From: a phage
Length of the DNA: 27,455 bases
Assembly (NCBI GenBank): GCA_011944185.1
Contig: GCA_011944185.1_3921.2
Direction: 5' to 3' (one strand)
Positions 7,409 to 27,455 of this stretch are shown one piece after another (within the stretch, counting starts at the first letter, position 1; the number at the start of each line of letters is the position of its first letter). A program made the position numbers and the translations under genes. Below the pieces are notes generated by a model. The model did no database searches. It was not told the origin of the DNA and saw nothing but the letters and a program-made list of their open reading frames with translations.

Positions 7409-8139
7409 AAAACTGGAATCTTCGTTGCGGAAAAACTCAAAAACAACCATACAGTAATGAGTATTGGGAGTCTTTGAAATCTCAATCTCTGTGTATGCTT
7501 GAAGAAGCAAAAGAGCTTGTAAAAGCAATTGAAGAGAAAGACCCCATTGAGACACTGGATGCTCAGGCAGATTTGCAATATGTTCTTGACGGTTTGATTT
7601 ACCTGTCACAACATGACCATAATGGTGCTATGAAAGCTGTTTGTCATAATAATGACCTGAAATACACAGACGATTATGAAGAAGCTTTAAAACGTCTTGC
7701 AGATATTGAGAAGCGTACTGGTCAAGATTGTATTGTCAGAATGTCAGTAGTTGATGGTAAAGAGTGGTACGCAATTGTTCGTGTAGCCGATGGGAAGATT
7801 ATGAAGCAATCGAATCTCCCAAAAGTACAGCTTGGTGAATACATTGTAGAACTTGAAAGCCAAGAACTTTTTGTGGTAGTATCTGATACATGCGTTATCT
7901 GCAAAGGTATTGTAGGTAGCTTAAAGGATTTGGGTGTAGATGGTTTTGTAGAAGTTAATCCAATTACCTCTAAAGCAGATAAAGATTTCTGTAAAGAGAA
8001 CGGACTATGGATTGCAGATATTGTCTACTATGATGGTGAGCAGTTCCATGTAACCTCATACCCGAAACTGAATTATGATGCTAATAACCTGAAGTGCTGG
8101 TTAAAAGGGGTTGGTTATAATGGATTCACAGAACATTAA
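7384..8139 (+). CDS. hypothetical protein; possible MazG-like NTP pyrophosphohydrolase domain at the N-terminus
   Basis: 251-aa ORF with AAGGAG 5 nt before the ATG. Residues ~35-75 (LEEAKELVKAIEEKD...LDAQADLQYVLDGL) loosely fit the EExxE...D pattern of all-alpha MazG/dUTPase-like NTPases. Weak, unverified. Confidence 0.3.
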   Translation: MFNSRESVKNWNLRCGKTQKQPYSNEYWESLKSQSLCMLEEAKELVKAIEEKDPIETLDAQADLQYVLDGLIYLSQHDHNGAMKAVCHNNDLKYTDDYEEALKRLADIEKRTGQDCIVRMSVVDGKEWYAIVRVADGKIMKQSNLPKVQLGEYIVELESQELFVVVSDTCVICKGIVGSLKDLGVDGFVEVNPITSKADKDFCKENGLWIADIVYYDGEQFHVTSYPKLNYDANNLKCWLKGVGYNGFTEH

Positions 8140-8443
8140 TAAAGAAGGTGTGGCTCAGAAGAGCCACTTCTCAAACTATAATATTTCTATGACGGTGTTT
8201 ATGTATGACCCGTTACTTGAGAAGTATGGTGAGACTCCAGATACACTTCTGGATAATGAACAAGTTTTAAAAGCAGTCCTGTACAAATACGGGATTGACA
8301 TTGAGAAAGAGTATTCTTTTGAAATCTGCCAACACAGGAATACTTTCGGTAAAGTTGTGATGGCTCCGCTCTTTATGGGTGTAGAAAGGACTGACTATGG
8401 TTGGCTGTATCTGAAAAGAAACTTGGAGAAATACCGTGTTTAA
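8120..8443 (+). CDS. hypothetical protein
   Basis: The ORF track begins at a TTG at 8111; first ATG at 8120 with AAAAGGGG upstream. No motif recognised. Confidence 0.45.
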   Translation: MDSQNINKEGVAQKSHFSNYNISMTVFMYDPLLEKYGETPDTLLDNEQVLKAVLYKYGIDIEKEYSFEICQHRNTFGKVVMAPLFMGVERTDYGWLYLKRNLEKYRV

Positions 8444-8771
8444 AGCGAAAAAGCTATCTTATGATGATATCATTTCTGGCGCTAAATTAGGTGTTGACAG
8501 TCTCGGACAAGACGTTAAACACGGAGACACAGTGATGTACTGTGATGACCGAAGAGGAAGAAGTGCAATCTTGTTTGGAAAAGTTGTATGTAAAATACGC
8601 GGTAATTATGTTGTTTCAGATATGGATGTCAACGTCGCACAAAAGCTCAAAACAATCATGGATAGCAAGATTTCATCATGGCTCTTAAATTGTATGCACG
8701 CATCGTCAATCACAAAGGTAAGTGATAAGTTTTACGATATGTGGCAGAATGAGCAAATTTTCAAGATTTAA
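8436..8771 (+). CDS. hypothetical protein (GTG start)
   Basis: 111-aa ORF; GTG start at 8436 with GGAG 8 nt upstream; overlaps the previous stop; followed by a strong terminator. Confidence 0.4.
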   Translation: MFKAKKLSYDDIISGAKLGVDSLGQDVKHGDTVMYCDDRRGRSAILFGKVVCKIRGNYVVSDMDVNVAQKLKTIMDSKISSWLLNCMHASSITKVSDKFYDMWQNEQIFKI

Positions 8772-8817: not shown

Positions 8818-11052
8818 ATGATTAAGACAATTAAAAAATCAAACGGTACAGTAGTAAGCTTTGACCCAGAAAGACTGAATAAATGGGCATCATGGGCAGA
8901 TAAGCGTGGAATTATCTGGTCAGAAGTCACTATGGAAGCTATGAAACGTGTCTACGAAGGTTGCACCACAAAAGAGATGCACCAAGCCATGATTGATGTT
9001 TGTGTTGATAAACAAACTCAAGAGTACTCAGACATGGCTGGACGGCTACTTCTGGGGATTATCTACAAAGAAGCCTTTGGAGGCTTTACTAAGGTTCCTA
9101 CACTGATTACCTTCGTTAAAAATATGGAGAGAGCAGGACTTTGGGAGAAGATGGATTATTCACAGGAAGAGCTTGAATACCTGCAAGGTTACATCGTGCA
9201 CTCAAAAGATATCTCTTACGGTTATGCAGTCTTGAAACAGTTCAGAGACAAGTATGGCATCCGTGATATTAAAACGGGAAGACTTTTTGAGTCACCACAA
9301 TTTATGTTCATGGGTATGGCTATGAAAGCCTTTGAGAAGCAACCAAAGCACCGTAGACTGCAAGATGTTATCAAGCTGTACACTTACCTATCTGACCTGA
9401 AAATTAACGCTCCTACGCCTTATTTAAACGGTTTAAGAGCAACTAAATCAGGCTATGCGTCATGCTGTTTGATTAAGGCAAATGATACTGCTGAATCACT
9501 TGGTATTGCTGCAAAGGTTGCTTATGATATGACTACAAAGCAAGCTGGTATTGGTATGCTGATGGAGACTCGCACTATTGGTGATGGTATCCGTCAAAAT
9601 ACGATTGAGCACATGGGTAAGCTACCTTATTACAAGCTTGTACGTTCATCTGTAGAGGCAAATAAACAGAAGAGTCGTGGTGGTTCAGCTAATAACTTCT
9701 ACACTGCTCTAGACCCGCAGATTGAAGATTTACTGCGTTTGAAGCACCCTACAACGGTTCCTTCTAAACGTATTAATGAGATGGACTACTCATTCGGTAC
9801 AAACGATTATTTCTGGCAGTGTGTTCAGTATGATACAGATTGGTTGCTATTCTCTTACAAAGATGCACCAAAACTCTATGACATGTTCTACACAGCATCT
9901 GCTGATGAGTTTGCTATGGCAGTTGGTCACGCAGTACATTCAGGAGTTAAGCACAGACGAGTCAAGGCTCGTGAAATTGCTAAGCTGTTTATTCAACAGC
10001 GTTATGCTACAGGTCGTGTGTATCCATTCTTCACTAACAATGCAAACACACATACACCATTTAAAGAACCATTGAAGATGTCAAATCTTTGTATGGAAAT
10101 TGTATTGCCAGTGTATGGTTTTGAGAAAGAGACAGACCTTTACAGAGACGATGCTGTGAAAGAGGATGGTGAGGTTGCTCTTTGCTTCCTAACTAGTTTG
10201 GTTGCAGGGAGAATTTCAGAAGATGAATACGCTGACGTTGCTTATTATGCTCTTGCAATGGTTGACTCCGTTATTGACCTTATGGATTATCCGTATCCGT
10301 CGATGCGTAACCATGTTCAGAAGCGTCGTTCTGTTGGGATTGGCCTTACAAATGTGGCTCACTACCTTGCGAAGAACTACGTGAACTACTCTTCACGAGC
10401 AGGTAAAACGAAGCTTCATGAGCTTGCTGAAATGCACTCTTACTACTTACACGAAGCTTCTTTAAGACTTGCTAAAGAACGTGGTGTGCCTGAGTATATG
10501 CAGTTCACTAAGTATCCTGAAGGATGGGTTCCTCCAAAGACAGCTAACAGGAAGATTGATGAGAAGCATGATGCAAAGCTAAGATATGATTGGGATGACT
10601 TAGCACAACGTATCAAAGAGAACGGTGGAATCCGTAACTCTGTATTAGAGGCTTACATGCCTAATGAGAGTTCTTCTCTGGCGACTAATACAACTAACGG
10701 CTTGTACCCAATTCGTGACTTTATTTTAACTAAAAAGTCTGCAACTGGTAACGTACTGTTTATTGTTCCAGATTATGAAGAGTTGAAGTATGTATATGAA
10801 ATTGCTTGGGATATTGATACCTTTGACCTGATTGATTGTTATGCAATTGTTCAAAAGTTCACTGGTCAAGCTATCTCTTCAGACTTCTATGTTGACTATG
10901 CAAAGTCTAAGAAGGTATCATTGGCTCAAGCTCTGAAGTATATGATTTATGCCAACTCGGTAGGTATGAAAACCATGTACTACCTTAACAGTCGCATCGG
11001 TGTAGGTAAGTCTGCACTGCAAGATGCTTATTGCGAGGGCTGTGGTGTTTAG
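8818..11052 (+). CDS. nrdA: ribonucleoside-diphosphate reductase large subunit (class Ia)
   Basis: N-terminal ATP-cone-like segment (IKKSNGTVVSFDPERL); PTPYLNGLRATKSGYASCCLIKANDTAES (active-site Cys region); NLCMEIVLP (Cys-Glu catalytic motif); PNESSSLATNTTNGLYP; C-terminal Cys pair YCEGCGV. These align to my recollection of T4/E. coli NrdA; 744 aa. Confidence 0.9.
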   Translation: MIKTIKKSNGTVVSFDPERLNKWASWADKRGIIWSEVTMEAMKRVYEGCTTKEMHQAMIDVCVDKQTQEYSDMAGRLLLGIIYKEAFGGFTKVPTLITFVKNMERAGLWEKMDYSQEELEYLQGYIVHSKDISYGYAVLKQFRDKYGIRDIKTGRLFESPQFMFMGMAMKAFEKQPKHRRLQDVIKLYTYLSDLKINAPTPYLNGLRATKSGYASCCLIKANDTAESLGIAAKVAYDMTTKQAGIGMLMETRTIGDGIRQNTIEHMGKLPYYKLVRSSVEANKQKSRGGSANNFYTALDPQIEDLLRLKHPTTVPSKRINEMDYSFGTNDYFWQCVQYDTDWLLFSYKDAPKLYDMFYTASADEFAMAVGHAVHSGVKHRRVKAREIAKLFIQQRYATGRVYPFFTNNANTHTPFKEPLKMSNLCMEIVLPVYGFEKETDLYRDDAVKEDGEVALCFLTSLVAGRISEDEYADVAYYALAMVDSVIDLMDYPYPSMRNHVQKRRSVGIGLTNVAHYLAKNYVNYSSRAGKTKLHELAEMHSYYLHEASLRLAKERGVPEYMQFTKYPEGWVPPKTANRKIDEKHDAKLRYDWDDLAQRIKENGGIRNSVLEAYMPNESSSLATNTTNGLYPIRDFILTKKSATGNVLFIVPDYEELKYVYEIAWDIDTFDLIDCYAIVQKFTGQAISSDFYVDYAKSKKVSLAQALKYMIYANSVGMKTMYYLNSRIGVGKSALQDAYCEGCGV

Positions 11053-11107
11053 TTTTAATAACTATGAGGGTCGTAAAAGACCCTCTAAAATTAACTTTGG
11101 AGAGACT

Positions 11108-11365
11108 ATGAAAGACTTAATAGCAAATCACGAGTGGCCTATATACTTGCTCCACAAACCTCGAAAAACGCTGTACTATGTGAGTAGCACAGATATGATG
11201 ATAAAACAAAATGATGACTCATGGGTCGCTGGTGTCTCTTACATCTCTACAGCAGATGGTAAAATCTATGCAAGACCTTATGACATGTTTAATAAAGAAA
11301 ATTGGGAAGTTTTAGACAGAAAACAAGCCTTAGAGATGATAAAGAAAGGAGAAATCACATTATGA
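11108..11365 (+). CDS. hypothetical small protein
   Basis: The ORF track entry 11024..11365 overlaps the nrdA 3' end; first ATG with an RBS (GGAGAGACT) is at 11108. Stop overlaps the nrdB start as ATGA. Confidence 0.45.
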   Translation: MKDLIANHEWPIYLLHKPRKTLYYVSSTDMMIKQNDDSWVAGVSYISTADGKIYARPYDMFNKENWEVLDRKQALEMIKKGEITL

Positions 11366-12435
11366 TTAACCAACACCCAATCTTTTTAGGTGGTGAGAGA
11401 AAGACATTTGACTCACTTAACAAGCACTACCCAAAAATCTTTGAGCTATATAAACAACAAAAAGCGCAAGACTGGTCAGAAGATGAGTTCCCTTTTGAAC
11501 AATCACGTCTTGATTTTGAAAGTGTGCCAGCATCAATGTCAGGTGTAATGCTTGAGATTCTTAAGTGGCAGTGGGAAGCAGATACCCAAGTTGCTAAAAG
11601 TTTAGCGTTTGCTTTTGCACCATTCATCTCTGATGACATTTATGCAACTGCAATTATGAAGCAGTCTGAGATTGAAAACCTACACGCCCTGACTTACTCG
11701 GAGATTGTAAGGCAATGTATTAAAAATCCTGAAACAATCTTAGATGAGATTAACCAGAACATTGCTGTACAAGACCGATTAAAAACTGTGAATCGTGTTC
11801 TTGAAGAATTGCTGGATGAAGGTATAAACTATCGACTGAGTTATGTCCGTGACTCACTTCTGGACAAAGACCCTTTACACTTCCATAAAGTGATTCTGAA
11901 AGGTCTATTTGCAGTGACTGCACTGGAAGGTATATCTTTTATGGCATCCTTTGCATGTACTTTTGCACTTGATGCTCAAGATAAATTTCAGGGTATTGCT
12001 CAAGCTGTTCAGAAAATTATGCTTGATGAAATCCTTCACACTAAAATTGATATTGAAGTTTTAAAAGAAACTTTAAGAGACGATGAGTGGCAAAAAGCTT
12101 TCCAACAAATTCTTCCAGAGATTAAAGTAATCTTAGATGAAGTAGTTGAAAGCGAAGAAAAATGGTCGTATTATATCTTCTCCGAAGGACGTGCTGTAGT
12201 TGGTTTAAATACAAAGCTTCTCCATGAGTGGGTTTACTATAATGCTGCCCCACTGTATGATATGTTTGGCATTCCCAGAGATTTTGTAGCTCCTAAAGAA
12301 CCACCTTTGAAGTATATGATTAAGAAGATGGAAATTGATAAAGAGCAGAATGCTAATCAGGAGCAACAGAACGGCGCGTACTTATTGAATACTGTTGTAG
12401 ATGATTTGAATAGTGGATTTTTAGAGGTTCCTTAA
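11362..12435 (+). CDS. nrdB: ribonucleoside-diphosphate reductase small subunit (class Ia)
   Basis: 357 aa from the ATG at 11362 (RBS AAGGAGAAA). Size and predicted all-helical ferritin-like character fit NrdB, and it lies between nrdA and the redoxin gene. The ORF track start at 11302 is probably an upstream non-ATG extension. Diiron ligands not individually verified. Confidence 0.8.
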   Translation: MINQHPIFLGGERKTFDSLNKHYPKIFELYKQQKAQDWSEDEFPFEQSRLDFESVPASMSGVMLEILKWQWEADTQVAKSLAFAFAPFISDDIYATAIMKQSEIENLHALTYSEIVRQCIKNPETILDEINQNIAVQDRLKTVNRVLEELLDEGINYRLSYVRDSLLDKDPLHFHKVILKGLFAVTALEGISFMASFACTFALDAQDKFQGIAQAVQKIMLDEILHTKIDIEVLKETLRDDEWQKAFQQILPEIKVILDEVVESEEKWSYYIFSEGRAVVGLNTKLLHEWVYYNAAPLYDMFGIPRDFVAPKEPPLKYMIKKMEIDKEQNANQEQQNGAYLLNTVVDDLNSGFLEVP

Positions 12436-12924: not shown

Positions 12925-15069
12925 ATGAACAAAGTACAGATTATTAAAAAGAATGGCTCACTTGAAGAACCTGATATCAAAAAAGTTTTAGCGGCAGTAA
13001 CAAAGTCAGCTAACAGGGTTGGATATAAAGAACTGCCACCAGATGTTACCCAAGCTCTTGAGTCAGCATTCATGAGGATTTTGGTAAAGTCCACTAAGCA
13101 GAATAATTTGCTTATCTCGGTAAATGATATTCACAGTATTGTTGAAGGTGCTTTGGCAGAGGTCAATCACGAGATTTATGAGTCTTACTCAACATACAGA
13201 AATTACCGTAAAGAGGTTGCTCAAAATTGGGACGAACTCTACCAGAAGACTAAAGATACACTCTTCTTAGGTGACCGTGAAAATGCTAACTTTGACAGCA
13301 GTTTAATTTCTACGAAAGGTTCAATTATCCGTGGTTACCTGACTAAAGAAATCTTTAAACAGTATCATCTAACACCAGAGGAACTTGAAGCCATTGAGAA
13401 AGGCTTTATCTATATCCACGATTTGAGAGACCTGATTTTTGGTGGTATTAACTGTTGCCTGTTTGACATTGGTAAAGTACTAAAAGGTGGCTTTGAAATG
13501 TCCGGCATTGAGTACTGTGAACCTAAATCTGTACTGTCAGCGTTGCAGGTTATTGGTGACGTAGTACTTTCAGCAACTGCACAGCAATTTGGTGGTTTTA
13601 CTTTAGCAGAGATTGATAAGGTACTTGTACCGTATGCTAAGAAGTCTCTACGCTATCATGCTGAGAAAGCATCATCTTATGGTATTCCTAAAGAGCATTA
13701 CCACAATTATGTAATGGAGCAGTTACAAATTGAACTGACTCAAGGTTTTCAGTCACTTGAGATGAAACTAAATACCGTACCTTGTAGCCGTGGTGATTTT
13801 GCATTCACAACTTTAACATTTGGTTTACTTGACTCAGATATGTCTAATGAGGATAATCGACTACAATACATGATTGCAAGTACTCTCCTAGATGTTCGTA
13901 TGAATGGACAAGGCAAGAGTAAAAAGCCTGTTGTATTCCCTAAACTGGTTTATATTTATGACCAGAAGAGACATGATGAAAATATCTGTCAAGGTCACCT
14001 GTACAGTAAAGCTATTGAGTGTTGCTCTAAAGCAATGTACCCAGATTTCTTAAGTGTGTCTGGTCATGGTGCTGTAGCAGAGGCTTTTGAGCGTTCTGGT
14101 AAGGTAATTTCACCGATGGGTTGCAGAGCCTTTTTATCTCCATATCTTAATGAGGGTGGAGAAGAGTTCTACGTTGGTCGTGCTAACATTGGTGCTGTAT
14201 CTTTGAACTTACCAATGATTTACCAGTATTCTAAAGAGAATGGTTTAGATTTCTGGAAAGAGCTTGATAAGTACCTAGAGATGATTCGCAACTTCCACAA
14301 GAAACGCTACGAAATGATTGCTAATATGCCAGCAAGTTCTAACCCTCTTGCGTTCACACAAGGTGGTCTGTACAAAGGAACTAAGAAACCTACTGACAAG
14401 GTTGGTTGGGATATTGTGAAGTCCTTCACAGCTTCTTTTGGTGTTACTGCGCTTGATGAGTTGTCTGTTCTTGCTGAAGGTAAACGACTTCATGAAGTTG
14501 GAAGCTATAGTTTTGCATACGATGTTCTGGCATACATCAACATGAAAACTGAAGAGTTTAAAAATGAAGATGGCTTCTTATATGCCGTCTATGGTACTCC
14601 AGCAGAATCACTTTGTGGAACTCAGCTAAAACAGTTCAGAGATATGTTTGGCGTTATCAAAGGTGTTTCTGATAAGGAATACTTTACAAACAGTTTCCAT
14701 ATGAATGTTGCAGCAGACATCTCACCATTTAAGAAGCAGGACTTAGAAGAGCCATTCTTCCATATCTGTAGAGGTGGGAGAATCCAGTATGTCAGGGTAG
14801 CTAACCCAGAAAACTTAACAGCACTTAAAAGCTGTATTACAAGAGGGATGTTGAAAGGTTTCTATCAGGGGCTTAACTTTGACTTAGCAATCTGTGAACA
14901 TTGTGGTAACAGACCAAAGGCTGATGTTGAAGAATGTGAAGTTTGTCACTCACATGATATCTCTGTGATTAACAGGGTGTGTGGGTATCTTGGATGGACT
15001 AAGATTAAAGGTGAATCCCGAATGAACGATGCAAAAATCGCTGAGATTCGTGACAGAGTTTCTATGTAA
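12925..15069 (+). CDS. nrdD: anaerobic ribonucleoside-triphosphate reductase (class III)
   Basis: N-terminal ATP-cone-like segment (IIKKNGSLEEPDIKKV); C-terminal Cys4 zinc ribbon (CEHCGN...CEVCHSHD) followed by the glycyl-radical motif RVCGYLG; 714 aa. Confidence 0.9.
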   Translation: MNKVQIIKKNGSLEEPDIKKVLAAVTKSANRVGYKELPPDVTQALESAFMRILVKSTKQNNLLISVNDIHSIVEGALAEVNHEIYESYSTYRNYRKEVAQNWDELYQKTKDTLFLGDRENANFDSSLISTKGSIIRGYLTKEIFKQYHLTPEELEAIEKGFIYIHDLRDLIFGGINCCLFDIGKVLKGGFEMSGIEYCEPKSVLSALQVIGDVVLSATAQQFGGFTLAEIDKVLVPYAKKSLRYHAEKASSYGIPKEHYHNYVMEQLQIELTQGFQSLEMKLNTVPCSRGDFAFTTLTFGLLDSDMSNEDNRLQYMIASTLLDVRMNGQGKSKKPVVFPKLVYIYDQKRHDENICQGHLYSKAIECCSKAMYPDFLSVSGHGAVAEAFERSGKVISPMGCRAFLSPYLNEGGEEFYVGRANIGAVSLNLPMIYQYSKENGLDFWKELDKYLEMIRNFHKKRYEMIANMPASSNPLAFTQGGLYKGTKKPTDKVGWDIVKSFTASFGVTALDELSVLAEGKRLHEVGSYSFAYDVLAYINMKTEEFKNEDGFLYAVYGTPAESLCGTQLKQFRDMFGVIKGVSDKEYFTNSFHMNVAADISPFKKQDLEEPFFHICRGGRIQYVRVANPENLTALKSCITRGMLKGFYQGLNFDLAICEHCGNRPKADVEECEVCHSHDISVINRVCGYLGWTKIKGESRMNDAKIAEIRDRVSM

Positions 15070-16988: not shown

Positions 16989-17300
16989 ATGAGCAAAATC
17001 TATAACACTCGTAAATTACAGATTGCAATCCTGTGCCAGTTTATGGCTGATAAGCACAACTCACACTATTGTGGTACAGGTTTCCTTATGCAAGGTCGTG
17101 GCTACATTAGCTTCAAAGAAGCTGTGAAGATGTACAATGAGCACCCTGAAGATGACAAAGAGTTGAAACAACTGAAGCTTACTTATGACAAGAAGCGTAA
17201 GAAAATTGTATGCTTGAACAACCTTATCAAGCAAACTGAAAACGTTTATGATGCAATTGGTGAAGAGGGTTTCTTAAAAGTCTTGAAAATAGCTCAGTAA
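16989..17300 (+). CDS. hypothetical protein
   Basis: 103-aa ORF followed by a perfect terminator. No motif recognised. Confidence 0.45.
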   Translation: MSKIYNTRKLQIAILCQFMADKHNSHYCGTGFLMQGRGYISFKEAVKMYNEHPEDDKELKQLKLTYDKKRKKIVCLNNLIKQTENVYDAIGEEGFLKVLKIAQ

Positions 17301-19039: not shown

Positions 19040-19531
19040 ATGAATAAGGGTTATTTTGAAAAATACCTAATATATGAACCAGATACAGGTTTATTAATTT
19101 GGAGAGTAACCCTTTGCAGTACCGCTATTGCTGGTAATGTGGCTGGCACAAAGTCTAAGAAGGGTTATATCCAAGTCCAGATAAATAAGAAGAGGTACTA
19201 TGCACATAATATTGCATGGATTATGTCTGGAGGTGAGATACCAAGTGGATATGAGATAGACCACATAGACCTTGATAAAGCTAATAATAAGTTGGAGAAT
19301 TTAAGACTTAGCACAAAGTCACAAAATCAGAGGAATAGGGGTATACACAAGAATAATAAAACTGGTGTGAAGGGTGTAAGTTTTTGTAAACAAACAGGTC
19401 TTTACAAAGCAAGAGTCATGCTTTACCATAAAGAATACTTTTGTGGAAGATTTAAAACGGTAGAAGAAGCAAAAGAAGCTGTAATTAAAAAGCGAATAGA
19501 ACTTCATGGTGAGTTTGCAAGACATAACTAA
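19040..19531 (+). CDS. free-standing HNH homing endonuclease with AP2-type DNA-binding domain
   Basis: YAHNIAWIMSGGEIPSGYEIDHIDLDKANNKLENLRL matches the HNH_3 pattern; C-terminal KTGVKGVSFCKQTGLYKARV...FKTVEEAKEA resembles an AP2 domain. Inserted between two functionally linked genes (Prs-like and Nampt-like). Confidence 0.75.
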   Translation: MNKGYFEKYLIYEPDTGLLIWRVTLCSTAIAGNVAGTKSKKGYIQVQINKKRYYAHNIAWIMSGGEIPSGYEIDHIDLDKANNKLENLRLSTKSQNQRNRGIHKNNKTGVKGVSFCKQTGLYKARVMLYHKEYFCGRFKTVEEAKEAVIKKRIELHGEFARHN

Positions 19532-21902: not shown

Positions 21903-24269
21903 ATGCGCATGGTAAATGACCACGCAGAAGTGATTAAGAGTTCAACTTCTTTAGAGACGTCTCAAGCACAGATTACAATGACACCTGAGATGTTCAGCCT
22001 TTTGAGTTCTGGTGTGTATACCTTTAAAGAAAGGGCAGTGATTCGTGAACTGTCATGTAACGCAGTAGATGCTCAGAAAGAAGCTGGAAAAGAGAACATT
22101 CCATTCCATGTGCATTTACCTACTCGTTTTGAGCCTTACTTCGAAGTTCGTGATTTTGGAACTGGATTGACTCATGATAAAGTTATGAGTTTGTACCTAA
22201 ACTATGGAGCTTCTACGAAGAATGACTCTAATGACTACATTGGTGCAATGGGTATCGGCTCAAAGTCACCATTTGCAATTGCTCAGTCATTCACAGTATC
22301 TAGCTATGTTGACGGTGTTGTTAATAAGTACTCTGTTTATCTTGAGAATGGTATCCCTCAAGTAACTAAGCTGACAACTAACCCAACAAAAGAACCTAAT
22401 GGTTTAGCTGTACGTGTGGCAGTTGCTGACCACCGTATCTCAAAGTTCTTTGAAGAAGCTGGGAATGTGTACTCATACTTCACTGTAAAACCAGAAAGTA
22501 ATATTGAGTACGACGATATATTAGCAGATATGAACGTCATTGCCCGTGAAGAAGGTGTTTATGATGCCATGATTCATAAGCAAAGCTGGCGTTCTGGCGC
22601 TAACAGAACAGAGTTTAATGTGGTGATGGGTAACATTGCCTACCCTGTTAACATGGAAGCATTACTTGGAGATGATTTCTTCAAAGTATTGCCAGAATTT
22701 TTCCGTAGGAGCGTAGACCTTGTAAACATCTACATGCCTATTGGTTCAGTTGCTATTGCAGCTTCTCGTGAAGCATTGCAGATGAATGACACGACAAAAA
22801 ATGTTATCATTGAGGCTACTAAAAAGATAACTGAAGCCATTACAAAGGATGTTATCAAGAAAGTTAATAGCCAACCTACACTCATGGATGCTGCACAGGC
22901 TTATGCTGAGTTACGTTTGAACTCACGAGAGATGTTTAATGCTGTGTGTCCAAAGCTAGAGTGGGGAGGCGTTAAGCTTGATTCTCTGGAAGAAGAATTA
23001 CTAAACATTCGTCGTGGGATTATCTACGCAGAAGACGGCTCAGTCATTTATGAACGTGACGGTAAAGGTAATATTAAGGTTGATAGGAACGGAAACAACA
23101 TCCCTAAAGTAGATTTTCTTTATGACCCAGTTGCTTATGTCAAGTTCAACTCTTTAGAGAGTAAGATTCGTGCAACAGCACTTTCCTACACTCAAGAGGC
23201 AAGTATGTTCAATATCTTTGGTGCAATGCGTAAAAGCCAAATTGAACAGTTTTTGTTCGTGATTAATGACCGTCGCAATAAAAATGGTACTGAGAAGACT
23301 GTAGGACGAAATCAAATCTTGCGTGGTGCATGTCGAGACTACGCTAACGAGTCAGGCCTGTTCCACAGATACAATGGCATTGTGTTTGTATTCTCGACTG
23401 AAAAAGAGTTAGACGACCTAATCAACCTACACAAACTTGATAAAAGCTTGTTAAAGATTGTGAAGATGTCTGATAAGGAACATCACTATCAGCGTAAAGA
23501 AGCTGTAAGAGGTGTTGTAAAACTCTGGAAAGCTGTTCCAGCAGAAGGTGTAGCTTCCTATAAAGAGGTTTCAGAGGACTTTGATACAATTGAAGAACCT
23601 CAGCTTTACATTAAGGCAGTTGGTGACACAGTTGATGGTAGATGTTTTTGCTCATCTCCAGAAGATGTAGCTAAGTCAGTTGCTAATGTTACAGGTAAGA
23701 CAGTCTATGTTTTCCGAAAAGCAAATTGGAAAAAGATACCAGAAGACTGGATTGAAGTAGATGAGCAACTCTTGAACGATAGCTTAACTGATGTTCACTG
23801 GATTAATCATAACAGGTATATGACACGCATCTACATGAATGGTGTTCTTGACCTTACAAGCAGTTGGATTATTGCCAGAAACTTTACATTCAATAACAGG
23901 AAGATTTCTCGTGGCTATTGCTATTCACGAGATACTAGCAAAACTATCTTCCTAGAAGGTAATGAAGAGGCTGTAGAGGCTATGTTCGGTAAAATCCAAT
24001 ACGTTGCTGCACCATTTGCATACACTTATACTATTAGTAGATTGCAAACTTTGAAAGAATGCCTTGACAATGACACAAAACTGTACAAAAAGATTAAAAA
24101 AGCAGGTGACCGCATGGTTATCAAGCTGACAAACTATCTTTCAAAAAGAAAACAAGAAAACTTCTTGCTTTCACACTTAGATTGGAATAAAGTATCACCT
24201 ATCGAAGTGAGTAAGTTTTTAGGCTTTAATGTGAAATGTGTTCCAGAAGGTACAACAATTTACGATTAA
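21903..24269 (+). CDS. rIIA: rIIA-like protein (GHKL/HATPase_c-type ATPase domain at N-terminus)
   Basis: GHKL motifs: IRELSCNAVDA (N box), VRDFGTGL (DxGxG), IGAMGIGSKSPFAIA (G box). Segments FSLLSSGVYTFKERAVIRELSCNAVDAQ, NDYIGAMGIGSKSPF and PIGSVAIAASREALQMNDTTKNVI match my recollection of T4 rIIA; 788 aa. Confidence 0.75.
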   Translation: MRMVNDHAEVIKSSTSLETSQAQITMTPEMFSLLSSGVYTFKERAVIRELSCNAVDAQKEAGKENIPFHVHLPTRFEPYFEVRDFGTGLTHDKVMSLYLNYGASTKNDSNDYIGAMGIGSKSPFAIAQSFTVSSYVDGVVNKYSVYLENGIPQVTKLTTNPTKEPNGLAVRVAVADHRISKFFEEAGNVYSYFTVKPESNIEYDDILADMNVIAREEGVYDAMIHKQSWRSGANRTEFNVVMGNIAYPVNMEALLGDDFFKVLPEFFRRSVDLVNIYMPIGSVAIAASREALQMNDTTKNVIIEATKKITEAITKDVIKKVNSQPTLMDAAQAYAELRLNSREMFNAVCPKLEWGGVKLDSLEEELLNIRRGIIYAEDGSVIYERDGKGNIKVDRNGNNIPKVDFLYDPVAYVKFNSLESKIRATALSYTQEASMFNIFGAMRKSQIEQFLFVINDRRNKNGTEKTVGRNQILRGACRDYANESGLFHRYNGIVFVFSTEKELDDLINLHKLDKSLLKIVKMSDKEHHYQRKEAVRGVVKLWKAVPAEGVASYKEVSEDFDTIEEPQLYIKAVGDTVDGRCFCSSPEDVAKSVANVTGKTVYVFRKANWKKIPEDWIEVDEQLLNDSLTDVHWINHNRYMTRIYMNGVLDLTSSWIIARNFTFNNRKISRGYCYSRDTSKTIFLEGNEEAVEAMFGKIQYVAAPFAYTYTISRLQTLKECLDNDTKLYKKIKKAGDRMVIKLTNYLSKRKQENFLLSHLDWNKVSPIEVSKFLGFNVKCVPEGTTIYD

Positions 24270-24274
24270 AGTGT

Positions 24275-24304
24275 TTGACAAGGGGCTTTGAAGCCCCTTA
24301 GAAT
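24275..24304 (+). promoter_or_regulatory. sigma70-like promoter P3 (TTGACA-N18-TAGAAT) with a perfect hairpin in the spacer
   Basis: TTGACA at 24275-24280 and TAGAAT at 24299-24304; the whole 18-nt spacer is the palindrome AGGGGCT-TTGA-AGCCCCT (24281-24298). Same GTTTGACAA context as P1 and P2. Lies between rIIA and rIIB. Confidence 0.5.
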
Positions 24305-24348
24305 AGCCTCACAAATTGATTGATTAACTAACAAGAGAGAGTAATAAG

Positions 24349-25458
24349 ATGACTACTAAAACTAAAGCACAGATTGACGCAGAAATTTACAAACTGGTTA
24401 AAGAAGGTAAGCTGACCAAAACAGCTATTGCACAGAAATTTAACACTTCAACCCGTTCAGTTGGTCGTGCTGTAGAGCGTCATGAAGCAACCCTAAAAGG
24501 GAATAAAAAGGCAACTTCTGCACCAGCTACGAAGACTTTGAAACAAGTTGCTAAGACTTTTAAAAAGAAAGCTGGCAAACCAGTTGAAAAGGTCGTTAAA
24601 GAGACTGTACAGAAAGCTCCAGTAAATAAACTGCACGAAGCTATGCAGAAAGATGACAAAATTGAGTACATGATTACTGGTGACTCTGTAATTATGACTT
24701 ATGGTTCAGAATCTGAAATTGTTGAGTCTACTCATCCAAACTATCAAGAGATTGTAGTTCATGTTGTGAAAGGTGAGTTCAAGAAAGCATTTGAACTGAT
24801 GAACATCCGTAAGTCTATCGAAAACTTCACTCAGGGTGCTATTACAATCAAAGGTGACAAGCTATTCTACGGTGCTGTTGAGATGCGTTCTACTCTGGTT
24901 GACCGTATTCTCCACATGATGAAGACTGGTGATAAAGGTTTTGAACGACTTGTAATGTTCTTCGAAAAACTGATGGAAAACCCATCTAAAGATTCTGTAG
25001 AACAACTTTGGGGATTTGTATCTCACCTTGATGTTGAAATTGATGAAGAAGGCTACATCATTGGTTGGAAGAAAGTCTCTACTCGTGAAGGCAAGCTGGT
25101 TGACTCTCACACCTACAAAGTGCCTAATGATTTGGGTAACATTGTAGAAATGCCACGTTGGATGGTTGATAATAACCGTAACGTAACTTGCTCTCAAGGT
25201 CTTCATGTTGGTGCTTGGGATTATGTTCGTTGCTTCTCAGGTGATACAATCCTGAAGGTTCGCGTACATCCACGAGATGTTGTATCTGTTCCAACTGATT
25301 ACAACGATATGAAGATGCGTTCCTCTCGTTATGAAGTTGCAGCAATCGTTGATAATCAACGTAAAGTGCTGGAAGCATGGGACGGTAAGACTGAAGCTTT
25401 GCATGTCATCGTTGGCACTGCTGGTGAACTCATCTCTCAACGTAAACGTGAAATCTAA
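24349..25458 (+). CDS. rIIB: rIIB-like protein
   Basis: Segments ITIKGDKLFYGAVEMRSTLVDRILHMM, FFEKLMENPSKDSVEQLW and VRVHPRDVVSVPTDYNDMKMRSSRYEV match my recollection of T4 rIIB (VRIEGGSLFYQNIELRSGLVDRILDSM; VKVHPRDVVSIPIDYNDAKMRTCQYEV); immediately downstream of rIIA; AGAGAGAG RBS. Confidence 0.75.
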   Translation: MTTKTKAQIDAEIYKLVKEGKLTKTAIAQKFNTSTRSVGRAVERHEATLKGNKKATSAPATKTLKQVAKTFKKKAGKPVEKVVKETVQKAPVNKLHEAMQKDDKIEYMITGDSVIMTYGSESEIVESTHPNYQEIVVHVVKGEFKKAFELMNIRKSIENFTQGAITIKGDKLFYGAVEMRSTLVDRILHMMKTGDKGFERLVMFFEKLMENPSKDSVEQLWGFVSHLDVEIDEEGYIIGWKKVSTREGKLVDSHTYKVPNDLGNIVEMPRWMVDNNRNVTCSQGLHVGAWDYVRCFSGDTILKVRVHPRDVVSVPTDYNDMKMRSSRYEVAAIVDNQRKVLEAWDGKTEALHVIVGTAGELISQRKREI

Positions 25459-25474
25459 TAAGTAATTTCTTAAA

Positions 25475-25500
25475 AGGCTGCTTCGGCGGCCTTTTTTATT
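25475..25500 (+). terminator. Rho-independent terminator (TTCG tetraloop)
   Basis: AGGCTGC-TTCG-GCGGCCT hairpin (one U-G wobble) followed by TTTTTT. Confidence 0.6.
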
Positions 25501-25527
25501 TGTATTTTGTGCAGAGTGCTGTATAAT
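25500..25527 (+). promoter_or_regulatory. candidate promoter (TTGTAT-N16-TATAAT)
   Basis: Perfect -10 TATAAT at 25522-25527 with a weak -35-like TTGTAT 16 nt upstream; about 30 nt before the ATG at 25559. Confidence 0.35.
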
Positions 25528-25558
25528 TGTTGTCACGATAAACTAAACAGGAGAACCA

Positions 25559-26107
25559 ATGAAGAAATTGATTCTAGGCTTGTGCTTAATGTTTACAGCA
25601 CACTTATCTTATGCAGTTGACTGCCCAGAGCTATCAATTAGCCAAAAAGTAAACATGTTAAAAGCTTACCAGTATGGTGAGAATAATATGGGGAAAGGCT
25701 GGGGTATTACTCTAGCAGCTATAGCCTTACAAGAGTCAGAGTTAGGTCTGAAGGTAGAGAATAAAAAGACCCACGACTATGGTATTTTCCAGAATCACTT
25801 GAAGACTGTTGTAAAGCGTAACAAAATTAGTCCTAATGTGGCTAAAAAGAAACTCTTAAAAGATTTTGACTATGCAGCAAAAGAGACGCATAAAGAGCTT
25901 GAGTTTTGGACTAAGGTACATGGTCACCCGAAGTCAAAGAAGACTTTACAAAAAGTTTTAGCATCGTATAATGCTGGGTATTCGTACAAAATCCCTAAAG
26001 CTAAGAAATACTCTCAAGATGTCTATAACAATATGAAAGTTATTGCTCAATGTGAATTTGCAACAAACATTTCTAAGGTAAATCATGAAAAAATTAAGAA
26101 AGTCTGA
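25559..26107 (+). CDS. secreted lysozyme-like / lytic transglycosylase (SLT)-domain protein
   Basis: N-terminal signal-peptide-like segment MKKLILGLCLMFTAHLSYA; LQESELG...HDYGIFQ resembles the catalytic Glu and G(L/I)xQ region of the lysozyme-like fold; later ASYNAGYSY resembles the AYNAG motif of SLT domains. AGGAGAA RBS. Confidence 0.5.
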   Translation: MKKLILGLCLMFTAHLSYAVDCPELSISQKVNMLKAYQYGENNMGKGWGITLAAIALQESELGLKVENKKTHDYGIFQNHLKTVVKRNKISPNVAKKKLLKDFDYAAKETHKELEFWTKVHGHPKSKKTLQKVLASYNAGYSYKIPKAKKYSQDVYNNMKVIAQCEFATNISKVNHEKIKKV

Positions 26108-26780
26108 TGAAGTCCTGTGCCAAGCTTATGACTTGCACCCTCATGAGTTAGGTCTTGATTCCTGTGTATGGACTCCAGAACAGTGCAGGGATTTTGAAGA
26201 CACTGCAAGAGAAGTTGTATGTTCACTGGAAGAGTTCCACACATCAGAACCAATTGTGAACGTTGTGGACAAAGAGACTGGGAAGTCTATAGGTGTAAGA
26301 CGTGACAGTTTAGTCATAGTCAATAAAGACCTTGTAGAAAAAGGTAACCTCATCTTAGCAGATATTGATGGTGTTCTTACAAATTTTAATCACGAAGATT
26401 GCTCAACGGAATTGACTGATGGGTCATTCTCACAGTATACTAATCTCCTTGACTCTGTAAGAGCAAAACCAACGTATGTTTTTAGTATTATTGATGCAAT
26501 TGCTAATCATGCTGCCATCGGACTCTTGACAGCAAGAGGTGAAACTCAGAGAATACCTACTGAGATGTTCTTGAGGCACAATATAGAGCATGATTACATA
26601 CTTTTTATGCGTGGTTTTGGAACTAACTCTCTAAGTGCAGAAAGTTTGAAAGTGAGGATGATTCAGTCTTGCATTCTGCCTTACTTTAATATAGTATGCT
26701 TTATAGAAGATACAGAGAAGAATGTTCAGAAGGTAAACAGAATCCTTCCACACATTAAAACCATGCTAGTTAAACATTGA
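26085..26780 (+). CDS. putative HAD-superfamily hydrolase (phosphatase/nucleotidase-like)
   Basis: LILADIDGVLTNF contains the HAD motif I DxDG(T/V)L; GLLTARGE is a candidate motif II; CFIEDTEKN is a possible acidic motif IV. Start overlaps the upstream gene by about 23 nt and is uncertain. Confidence 0.4.
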   Translation: MKKLRKSDEVLCQAYDLHPHELGLDSCVWTPEQCRDFEDTAREVVCSLEEFHTSEPIVNVVDKETGKSIGVRRDSLVIVNKDLVEKGNLILADIDGVLTNFNHEDCSTELTDGSFSQYTNLLDSVRAKPTYVFSIIDAIANHAAIGLLTARGETQRIPTEMFLRHNIEHDYILFMRGFGTNSLSAESLKVRMIQSCILPYFNIVCFIEDTEKNVQKVNRILPHIKTMLVKH

Positions 26781-26791
26781 GAGAAAAATTT

Positions 26792-27256
26792 ATGAACAAT
26801 ATCATTACGGTAGCACTGGACGATACGGCAAACAAATCTGAAGTAGTTCGTAAAATGATTCAAGGTAACTTTGAAGGTAAAATTTTTCGTGCTGTTAATG
26901 TAAAAGCTGATGGCAGTATTCGTGAATACCGTGCATTGTTGAATGTTAAAAAGCACGTAAAAGGTGCTGGTTCAACGACTGCACACAAAGAAAACCTGAT
27001 GACTATCTATGATATGGGTAAGGCTTCAGAGTTAGGTGCTGAAGGTATCGTTAAAGAAGGTGCTCCGTATCGCTCTTTCAATCTGGAAACTACTCTTATG
27101 CTTTCCTTTACAAGTGGTTCTAAAACAATCACTTATCTCTTTACTGATGCTGCAACGGTATCTGCTATTAAGGATAGCACTGTCAAAGCTGGCGTAGTTG
27201 CTGCTGCAAAAGCTTCTTCGATGGCTGCAAATATCCTTGCAAAAGTCCTCGGTTAA
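26792..27256 (+). CDS. hypothetical protein
   Basis: The ORF track starts at a TTG at 26777; first ATG at 26792 after GAGAG. Ala/Lys-rich C-terminus; followed by a terminator. Confidence 0.45.
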   Translation: MNNIITVALDDTANKSEVVRKMIQGNFEGKIFRAVNVKADGSIREYRALLNVKKHVKGAGSTTAHKENLMTIYDMGKASELGAEGIVKEGAPYRSFNLETTLMLSFTSGSKTITYLFTDAATVSAIKDSTVKAGVVAAAKASSMAANILAKVLG

Positions 27257-27267
27257 GGTTAAGATAC

Positions 27268-27292
27268 AGGCTCCTTCGGGAGCCTTTTTATT
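27268..27292 (+). terminator. Rho-independent terminator (TTCG tetraloop)
   Basis: AGGCTCC-TTCG-GGAGCCT hairpin followed by TTTTTATTTT. Confidence 0.65.
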
Positions 27293-27307
27293 TTCTAAGG
27301 AGTATTA

Positions 27308-27455
27308 ATGAAGCCGATGTTCAAATATCTTGGTGGTAAAACAAGAATATTAAAAGAGTATGAGCGTTTAGGTGTCTTCCCAGACAACTGTAAAAACTTC
27401 TATGACCTGTTTTCAGGTGGTGGTTCAGTAGCTATCTGGGCTTATAACAGATACC
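27308..27455 (+). CDS. dam: DNA N6-adenine methyltransferase (Dam-like), 5' partial
   Basis: FKYLGGKTRILKEY...FYDLFSGGGSVAIWAY matches the Dam N-terminus (GGK...L; F-x-D/E-L/P-F-x-GGG-S/A-V SAM-binding motif I). AAGGAG RBS. ORF runs off the window end. Confidence 0.65.
   Translation, partial: MKPMFKYLGGKTRILKEYERLGVFPDNCKNFYDLFSGGGSVAIWAYNRY

Follow-up and report, generated by a model that had tools for sequence, protein, structure and literature searches.

A predicted Sec-exported peptidoglycan glycosidase of the T4 Vs.1 family encoded downstream of rIIA and rIIB in a Felixounavirus

The DNA analyzed here, a phage contig of 27,455 nucleotides (GCA_011944185.1_3921.2 of assembly GCA_011944185.1, referred to as the window), belongs to a Felixounavirus, and many genomes of this genus match it along its length with 92-97% identity. 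Behind rIIA and rIIB it carries a real gene, the product of which is, judged from its sequence, an exported lysozyme-like enzyme that would cut the cell wall. This gene, its neighbors and the elements within it are located as follows.

21903-24269, rIIA, upstream of the glycosidase gene
24349-25458, rIIB, directly upstream of the glycosidase gene
25472..25495, plus strand, intrinsic terminator closing the rIIA-rIIB unit, AAAAGGCTGC-TTCG-GCGGCCTTTT followed by a T-run (terminator scan)
25500..25527, plus strand, candidate sigma-70-type promoter, TTGTAT, 16-nt spacer, TATAAT (read from the sequence)
25549..25554, plus strand, Shine-Dalgarno sequence AGGAGA, 4 nt 5' of the glycosidase ATG (read from the sequence)
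25559..26107, plus strand, gene for the putative exported peptidoglycan glycosidase of the Vs.1 family, orthologue of Felix O1 ORF3 (182 aa, ATG start)
25559..25615, plus strand, predicted Sec (signal peptidase I) signal peptide, codons 1-19, MKKLILGLCLMFTAHLSYA followed by VD (hydropathy and -3/-1 rule)
25733..25738, plus strand, codons of E59-S60, the putative catalytic general-acid Glu and the adjacent Ser (equivalents Slt70 E478, EtgA E42, HEWL E35)
25775..25792, plus strand, DYGIFQ, codons 73-78, beta-hairpin motif (the 'GLMQ' motif of lytic transglycosylases, LTs), with Asp73 at the position of HEWL D52 and EtgA D60
25964..25978, plus strand, SYNAG, codons 136-140, the 'AYNAG' motif of LTs (equivalents EtgA Y116 and N117)
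26009..26011, plus strand, codon of Y151, the putative active-site Tyr (equivalent EtgA Y133), invariant in the family
26085..26780, plus strand, polynucleotide kinase/phosphatase (PNK) gene (phrog_3970, E 6.5e-132)
27268..27285, plus strand, intrinsic terminator ending the three-gene unit of glycosidase, PNK and a phrog_2267 ORF (terminator scan)

The glycosidase gene has a strong ribosome-binding site, and its G+C content is 35% compared to 39% for the window. The candidate promoter in front of it combines a weak -35 element, in which 3 of 6 bases match, with a perfect -10 element, and hence stayed below the threshold of the promoter scan. In Felix O1 and in Salmonella phage HMD-P8 the spacer between rIIB and the glycosidase gene, with both terminator and promoter, is identical to that of the window. 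In Mooglevirus Sf18 the terminator hairpin is found in the same position with a substitution that improves the stem (GCGGC to GCAGC), and TTGAAA-16-TATAAT lies where the candidate promoter lies in the window. A promoter of its own ahead of the gene, as proposed in the first-pass annotation, is plausible on these sequence features. The last 23 nt of the glycosidase gene are shared with the start of the PNK gene, as in Felix O1 and Sf18, and therefore both genes are expected to be co-transcribed. A strong promoter-like site is also present inside the glycosidase gene at 25945-25972 on the plus strand (TTTACA-16-TATAAT, 11 of 12 bases matching), 113 nt 5' of the PNK start at 26085; it could give PNK a transcript of its own or could have arisen by chance, given the AT-rich DNA.

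Further upstream, genes for the aerobic and anaerobic ribonucleotide reductases, PRPP synthetase, NadV and an HNH endonuclease precede rIIA and rIIB. The large subunit of the anaerobic reductase is a single ORF of 714 aa in the window (12925-15069, plus strand), and in HMD-P8 (8101-10561) the same reductase is annotated as two CDSs about 400 bp apart, which could reflect a frameshift, an insertion or a difference in annotation. HNH homing-endonuclease ORFs were observed among the nucleotide-metabolism genes at 16989-17300 and 19040-19531 (plus strand), the first between nrdG and the PRPP synthetase gene and the second between the latter and nadV, and such interspersed ORFs are typical of Felix-O1-like genomes. 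No tRNA genes, and no Rfam families at the gathering threshold, were found in the whole window. Two records described as 'Campylobacter phage A132/A126' with the host C. jejuni (MG065664.1 and MG065668.1) are 93.6% identical over 3.1 kb to positions 24300-27455 of the window, which suggests that they are mislabelled or contaminated.

The neighbors of the glycosidase gene are rIIA, rIIB, the PNK gene and the phrog_2267 ORF, with no secretion apparatus genes among them, and all contexts of homologues that were examined are phage genomes. The order rIIA-rIIB-(x)-glycosidase-PNK is common to Mooglevirus, Kolesnikvirus and a metagenomic relative at 38% identity.

Comparison of the protein with sequence databases placed it in a family that is already known. 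Its sequence is the same as that of a protein of Escherichia phage vB_EcoM_E9 (100% identity), and with Felix O1 ORF3 (Felix01p003, NP_944779) it shares 98.4% identity. The ORF3 record carries the note 'hypothetical 20.7 KD protein in vs-regB intergenic region', a designation formerly used for T4 Vs.1. It matched phrog_600 with an E-value of 1.3e-57 (residues 1-170 against profile positions 1-176 of 178), the family to which T4 vs.1 is assigned in a published table (PMC11879866 supplement). By tblastn T4 Vs.1 itself was reached (MT984581, 61771-62259, annotated 'Vs.1 conserved hypothetical protein') with 31.6% identity over residues 1-155 and E 4e-9. The same search detected the protein in 1,901 of 50,697 phage records, and a profile search against representatives clustered at 50% identity yielded 1,267 clusters at E<=1e-3 and 604 at E<=1e-10, nearly all of them 160-195 aa long. 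In some GenBank records the orthologue is named 'lytic transglycosylase domain-containing protein', 'putative lysin' or 'putative lysozyme domain-containing protein'. Nolan et al. (2006; PMC1524935) described a match of vs.1 to SLT that was marginal yet consistent across six T4-like phages, and they credit the first such observation to earlier PSI-BLAST work. What the first-pass annotation presented as a fresh observation is thus the known T4 Vs.1/Felix O1 ORF3 family, already represented in GenBank by an identical protein, and not a discovery.

Members of the family occur exclusively in large virulent phages, which belong to several phage families. NCBIfam contains no model for the protein, and a scan of the longer family members (250-376 aa) for extra domains revealed no informative one, with only two sub-threshold hits for one member. 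A homologue labelled as a Campylobacter coli transglycosylase SLT domain-containing protein was found at 8001-8582 of ACBEZJ010000004.1 (GCA_053226485.1, 214,766 bp). Because a gene matching Chimallin_Phikzvirus is located at 10019-11953, 1.4 kb from the homologue, the contig, although part of a bacterial assembly, appears to be that of a jumbo phage of the nucleus-forming kind.

The motifs described in the first-pass annotation could all be identified in the 182-aa ORF, as QESELG (E59, S60 and G63), DYGIFQ (73-78) and SYNAGY (136-141). Together they comprise the complete set of family-1 LT/GH23 motifs, E59-S60, G75-I-F-Q78, S136-Y-N-A-G140 and Y151, which correspond to the active-site residues listed for EtgA (PMC10880428). 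As a single sequence the protein scored 18.8 bits (E 0.0012) against Pfam SLT (PF01464), under the gathering threshold of 21.3. At E<=0.01 this model was matched by 64 of 84 aligned family members, with a best E-value of 2.8e-12. A search of the PDB with the single sequence gave no match, whereas the profile of 84 sequences found EtgA (8URN) with E 8.3e-7, followed by c-type lysozymes with E-values of 2e-3 to 5e-2. The AlphaFold model, built from 15 sequences, had a pLDDT of 84.6 and a pTM of 0.79, with block means mostly >90 over residues 21-160. All top Foldseek matches share the lysozyme-like fold, with weak E-values for PDB chains (best 6e-3), and the best matches in a library of viral structures were other phage 'Transglycosylase SLT domain-containing proteins'. 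The predicted fold is thus the lysozyme-like alpha-helical catalytic fold of SLT/GH23 enzymes, and here the first-pass reading was borne out.

Conservation of the active site was analyzed in 169 family sequences. E59, a lack of conservation of which would have counted against the earlier proposal, is present in all of them, and Y137, G140 and Y151 are likewise invariant. Next to E59, residue 60 is Thr in 6 sequences and Ser in all others (163), and N138 is kept in 159. A pseudo-enzyme was considered and rejected, since the active site is invariant across the family. At the level of the modeled fold and the aligned active site, reading the protein as a lysozyme-like enzyme is well supported.

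Which reaction would be catalyzed is a separate question. In HMMER and BLASTP alignments Asp73 lies opposite D60 of EtgA and the Asp of the c-type lysozyme motif D-Y-G-L/I-F/L-Q-L/I-N, and the sequence DYGIFQN is nearly the hairpin of hen lysozyme. D60 of EtgA is equivalent to lysozyme D52 and its replacement in D60N lowers the activity, while Slt70 has Ala at this position; EtgA is regarded as a muramidase/LT hybrid by the authors of that study, with its reaction product still open (PMC10880428). Because Asp73 occupies the place of lysozyme D52 and EtgA D60, hydrolytic chemistry is possible, and the protein may be a hydrolytic muramidase rather than an LT that forms 1,6-anhydro products. The name 'lytic transglycosylase' used in the first-pass annotation is a fold assignment and not an established reaction. 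Among the 169 sequences position 73, encoded at 25775-25777 in the window, is most often Ser (94), with Asp in 57, the Felix-O1 lineage among them, and Ala in 14, one of which is T4 Vs.1. This variation may naturally switch the chemistry between hydrolysis and transglycosylation.

The N-terminus also agrees with what had been noted before, namely a typical Sec signal peptide. It reads MKK-LILGLCLMFTAHL-SYA, followed by VD, with two Lys, a hydrophobic core of 13 residues (Kyte-Doolittle maximum 2.5) and a small-x-small site with Ser/Ala at -3/-1, which predicts cleavage after residue 19. This call was made with simple rules (hydropathy and -3/-1) and not with a trained predictor. Residues 1-19 had low confidence in the AlphaFold model (pLDDT <50). 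An N-terminal hydrophobic segment was detected in 150 of 161 full-length family representatives and is preceded by Lys/Arg in 145 of these; representatives that do not have a signal-like N-terminus look like truncated gene calls or seem to carry longer N-terminal membrane anchors. The N-terminus of T4 Vs.1 is MRKALLAGLLAISMMAHS. These signal-peptide features suggest that the glycosidase is exported via Sec. A lipoprotein was rejected, as Leu precedes Cys9 and there is no lipobox, and a signal-anchor-release (SAR) anchor was rejected on the basis of the hydrophobic core of only 13 residues followed by a cleavage site.

Two Cys, one just behind the signal peptide and the other in the last helix, tend to occur together: of 169 sequences 81 contain the pair, 70 lack both residues, and 18 have one of the two (Fisher p = 6e-27, a value not corrected for phylogeny). 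Exactly two Cys in the mature part were counted in 95 of the 169. EtgA-type enzymes have a conserved disulfide (PMC10880428). The pattern fits a Cys22-Cys165 disulfide, and because of this putative bond an oxidizing compartment would be the site of folding.

In the RT-PCR series on Felix O1 the ORF3 transcript was maximal at 25 min ('middle'; Whichard et al., PMC3185647 Table 3). The 25-min class also contains ORF1 (rIIA), ORF4 (PNK), ORF6 (Rz-like) and ORF35 (lysin), and ORF3 is in neither the 5-min nor the 10-min class (PMC3185647). T4 vs.1 is classified as early RNA/middle protein, and its product was detected as protein (PMC9697503 supplement). In the first-pass annotation the gene was said to be expressed early and to lie among nucleotide-metabolism genes rather than in a lysis cassette. 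This framing is only partly right. The 25-min peak of Felix O1 ORF3, shared with the endolysin ORF35 and the Rz-like ORF6, speaks against early expression. The contrast with a lysis cassette makes no distinction, as Felix-O1-like phages have no such cassette; in Felix O1, the Phage_lysozyme endolysin of which is gp35, no holin-lysin cassette was found (Whichard et al., PMC3185647). The gene directly follows rIIA and rIIB, and spanin genes are found farther downstream in relatives. In Felix O1 and Sf18 a spanin pair is located 1.2 kb downstream of the glycosidase gene on the same strand. In HMD-P8 the distance to the pair, again on the same strand, is 3 kb, and the endolysin is encoded on the other strand at a distance of about 18 kb.

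The virion proteome of Felix O1 was determined by two proteomic methods, and gp3 was absent from it (PMC3185647). The proteins identified were gp23, 36, 49, 53-55, 57-59, 63, 64, 67-69, 73, 74 and 77 (PMC3185647). In T4, transposon insertions were recovered in 46 of 52 sites of vs.1, which was classified as 'Non-essential' (bioRxiv 10.1101/2025.11.20.689424 supplement). In the HIDEN-SEQ tables, a conditional comparison for vs.1 gave a log2FC of -1.01 with q 1.0, not significant after correction. Knock-down of vs.1 with dCas13d (CRISPRi-ART) was scored 'Semi-Fit', with a weak effect (KS p 0.099; PMC11879866). The literature searched on vs.1 and on Felixounavirus transglycosylases contained no enzymatic assay, localization or mutant phenotype for any member, and within it vs.1 is covered only by the 2006 comparative-genomics paper and high-throughput tables.

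When compared with characterized proteins, the closest relatives are T4 Vs.1 (UniProt P13311) and Felix O1 ORF3, which share the family, the length of 182 aa, the signal peptide, the E-S, G-x-F-Q and S-Y-N-x-G motifs and the invariant Tyr. Unlike the protein of the window, T4 Vs.1 has Ala at the position of Asp73 and no Cys pair, and its gene is flanked by regB and vs instead of rIIB and PNK. EtgA of enteropathogenic E. coli (PDB 8URN, 4XP8), a 'specialized' glycosidase of type III secretion, is about 24% identical over 120 residues. The phage protein resembles EtgA/VirB1-type enzymes in being small (182 aa), single-domain and predicted to be exported via Sec, and its E59 and D73 align with E42 and D60 of EtgA. 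However, the inner-rod protein EscI of a secretion machine recruits EtgA and stimulates it, whereas the phage protein has no known partner or envelope-spanning machine and its gene lies outside any envelope-spanning secretion apparatus. By analogy it may work like enzymes of the EtgA/VirB1 type, but it is not a member of that group. The family-1 LTs of GH23 (Slt70, MltC, MltE and MltF) and goose-type lysozyme differ from it as host housekeeping enzymes that are mostly lipoproteins or multidomain proteins, and Slt70 has Ala where the phage glycosidase has Asp73.

It is likely that the gene encodes a small, single-domain, Sec-exported peptidoglycan glycosidase of the Vs.1 family that serves as an accessory wall remodeller in mid-infection and not as the main lysin. 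The precursor would be exported through SecYEG and cut by signal peptidase I after Ala19. The mature domain, 163 residues long and basic (pI about 9.7), would then fold in the periplasm, probably stapled by the Cys22-Cys165 disulfide. There it would cleave MurNAc-beta-1,4-GlcNAc bonds of the host sacculus with Glu59 as the general acid and, in the Felix-O1 lineage, with Asp73 as a possible second carboxylate. The enzyme would reach the wall independently of a holin, before lysis and without killing the cell, and would most likely remodel it with low activity or only locally, much as EtgA and VirB1 do. The wall would be nicked or thinned in mid-infection, and the enzyme would be an accessory to canonical endolysin-spanin lysis by conditioning the sacculus for that step. 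An accessory, low-activity or restrained role is proposed because the wall would be accessible without a holin, synthesis precedes lysis, and the homologue is dispensable in T4, which has a separate endolysin. A free and active muramidase in the periplasm would be expected to be toxic before lysis, and low or regulated activity is assumed here to remove that conflict. Aid to lysis is one of several possible roles of the glycosidase.

One of these is an action on the wall apart from lysis, in which the enzyme would exclude or handicap superinfecting phages, allow cell enlargement during a long infection, or release muropeptides that alter host signaling or defense. This is unlikely in our judgement, although an enzyme made before lysis with holin-independent access to the wall would suit it, as would the confinement of the family to large virulent phages of several families. 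The gene directly follows rIIA and rIIB, the T4 counterparts of which counter RexAB defense, and the rII synteny is kept down to 38% identity; however, in T4 and the Vi1-like phages the neighbor is regB and not rII, so that the neighborhood signal is inconsistent. In the CRISPRi-ART study a possible link to defense is suggested for semi-fit genes of unknown function such as vs.1 (PMC11879866), but the HIDEN-SEQ conditional comparison given above was not significant for vs.1 after correction.

A second, holin-independent endolysin, exported via Sec, restrained in the periplasm and lysing the cell upon membrane depolarization, is decidedly unlikely. It would resemble Lys44 of the Oenococcus phage fOg44, which, like P1 Lyz and R of phage 21, crosses the inner membrane via the host Sec system and not through holin holes. 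In SAR enzymes the anchor is weakly hydrophobic and is not cleaved off. The export signal and muralytic fold would suit such an endolysin, but the signal of the phage glycosidase looks cleavable, with its core of 13 residues and its cleavage site, and so is not a signal-anchor-release domain; we know of no mechanism that would hold a soluble periplasmic enzyme inactive. Lys44, Lyz and R are also the sole endolysins of their phages and required for lysis, whereas a separate, canonical GH24 endolysin is already present in relatives of the phage (Felix O1 and HMD-P8). Felix O1 has no recognized holin beside its lysin, ORF3 shares its transcript class with the lysin ORF35 and the Rz-like ORF6, the spanin genes follow 1.2-3 kb downstream, and several GenBank records say 'putative lysin'. 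Nevertheless, the T4 homologue is dispensable for plaque formation, whereas lysis by T4 needs e and t. A virion-associated enzyme that pierces the wall at DNA injection, like T4 gp5, T7 gp16, PRD1 P7 and phiKZ gp144, is extremely improbable and essentially excluded by the Felix O1 proteome, in which gp3 is missing (PMC3185647); a cleavable signal peptide would moreover take the protein out of the cytoplasm, where virions are assembled, and T4 has gp5 as well as Vs.1.

The accessory wall remodeller favored here can be extended to the family. It is possible, if doubtful, that Vs.1-family proteins provide a general holin-independent 'wall-conditioning' step, performed in mid-infection by a Sec-exported, EtgA-like glycosidase that is restrained by a phage or host partner. 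Its remodelling of the sacculus would measurably set the speed of lysis, the enlargement of the cell or the resistance to superinfection, and Asp, Ser or Ala at residue 73 would toggle the family between muramidase and lytic-transglycosylase chemistry. The phages concerned might be large virulent phages of Gram-negative hosts, comprising T4-like, Felix-O1-like, Vi1-like and rV5-like phages and at least one chimallin-encoding jumbo phage.

For the window itself the finding adds little, as an identical protein is in GenBank and the SLT resemblance of the T4 homologue was printed about twenty years ago. The residual interest lies in the role of a conserved exported enzyme and in the Asp/Ser/Ala polymorphism at the position of lysozyme D52. 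With about 1,900 of 50,697 phage records, the Vs.1 family ranks with those accessory genes of large virulent phages that are conserved most widely. It has retained an export signal together with a full active site, and its T4 member is expressed and has a weak fitness effect upon knock-down. The natural variants at Asp73 could help to find out how a lysozyme differs from a lytic transglycosylase. If the role of an exported wall-cutting enzyme before lysis were settled, an extra step would be added to the textbook picture of holin, endolysin and spanin.
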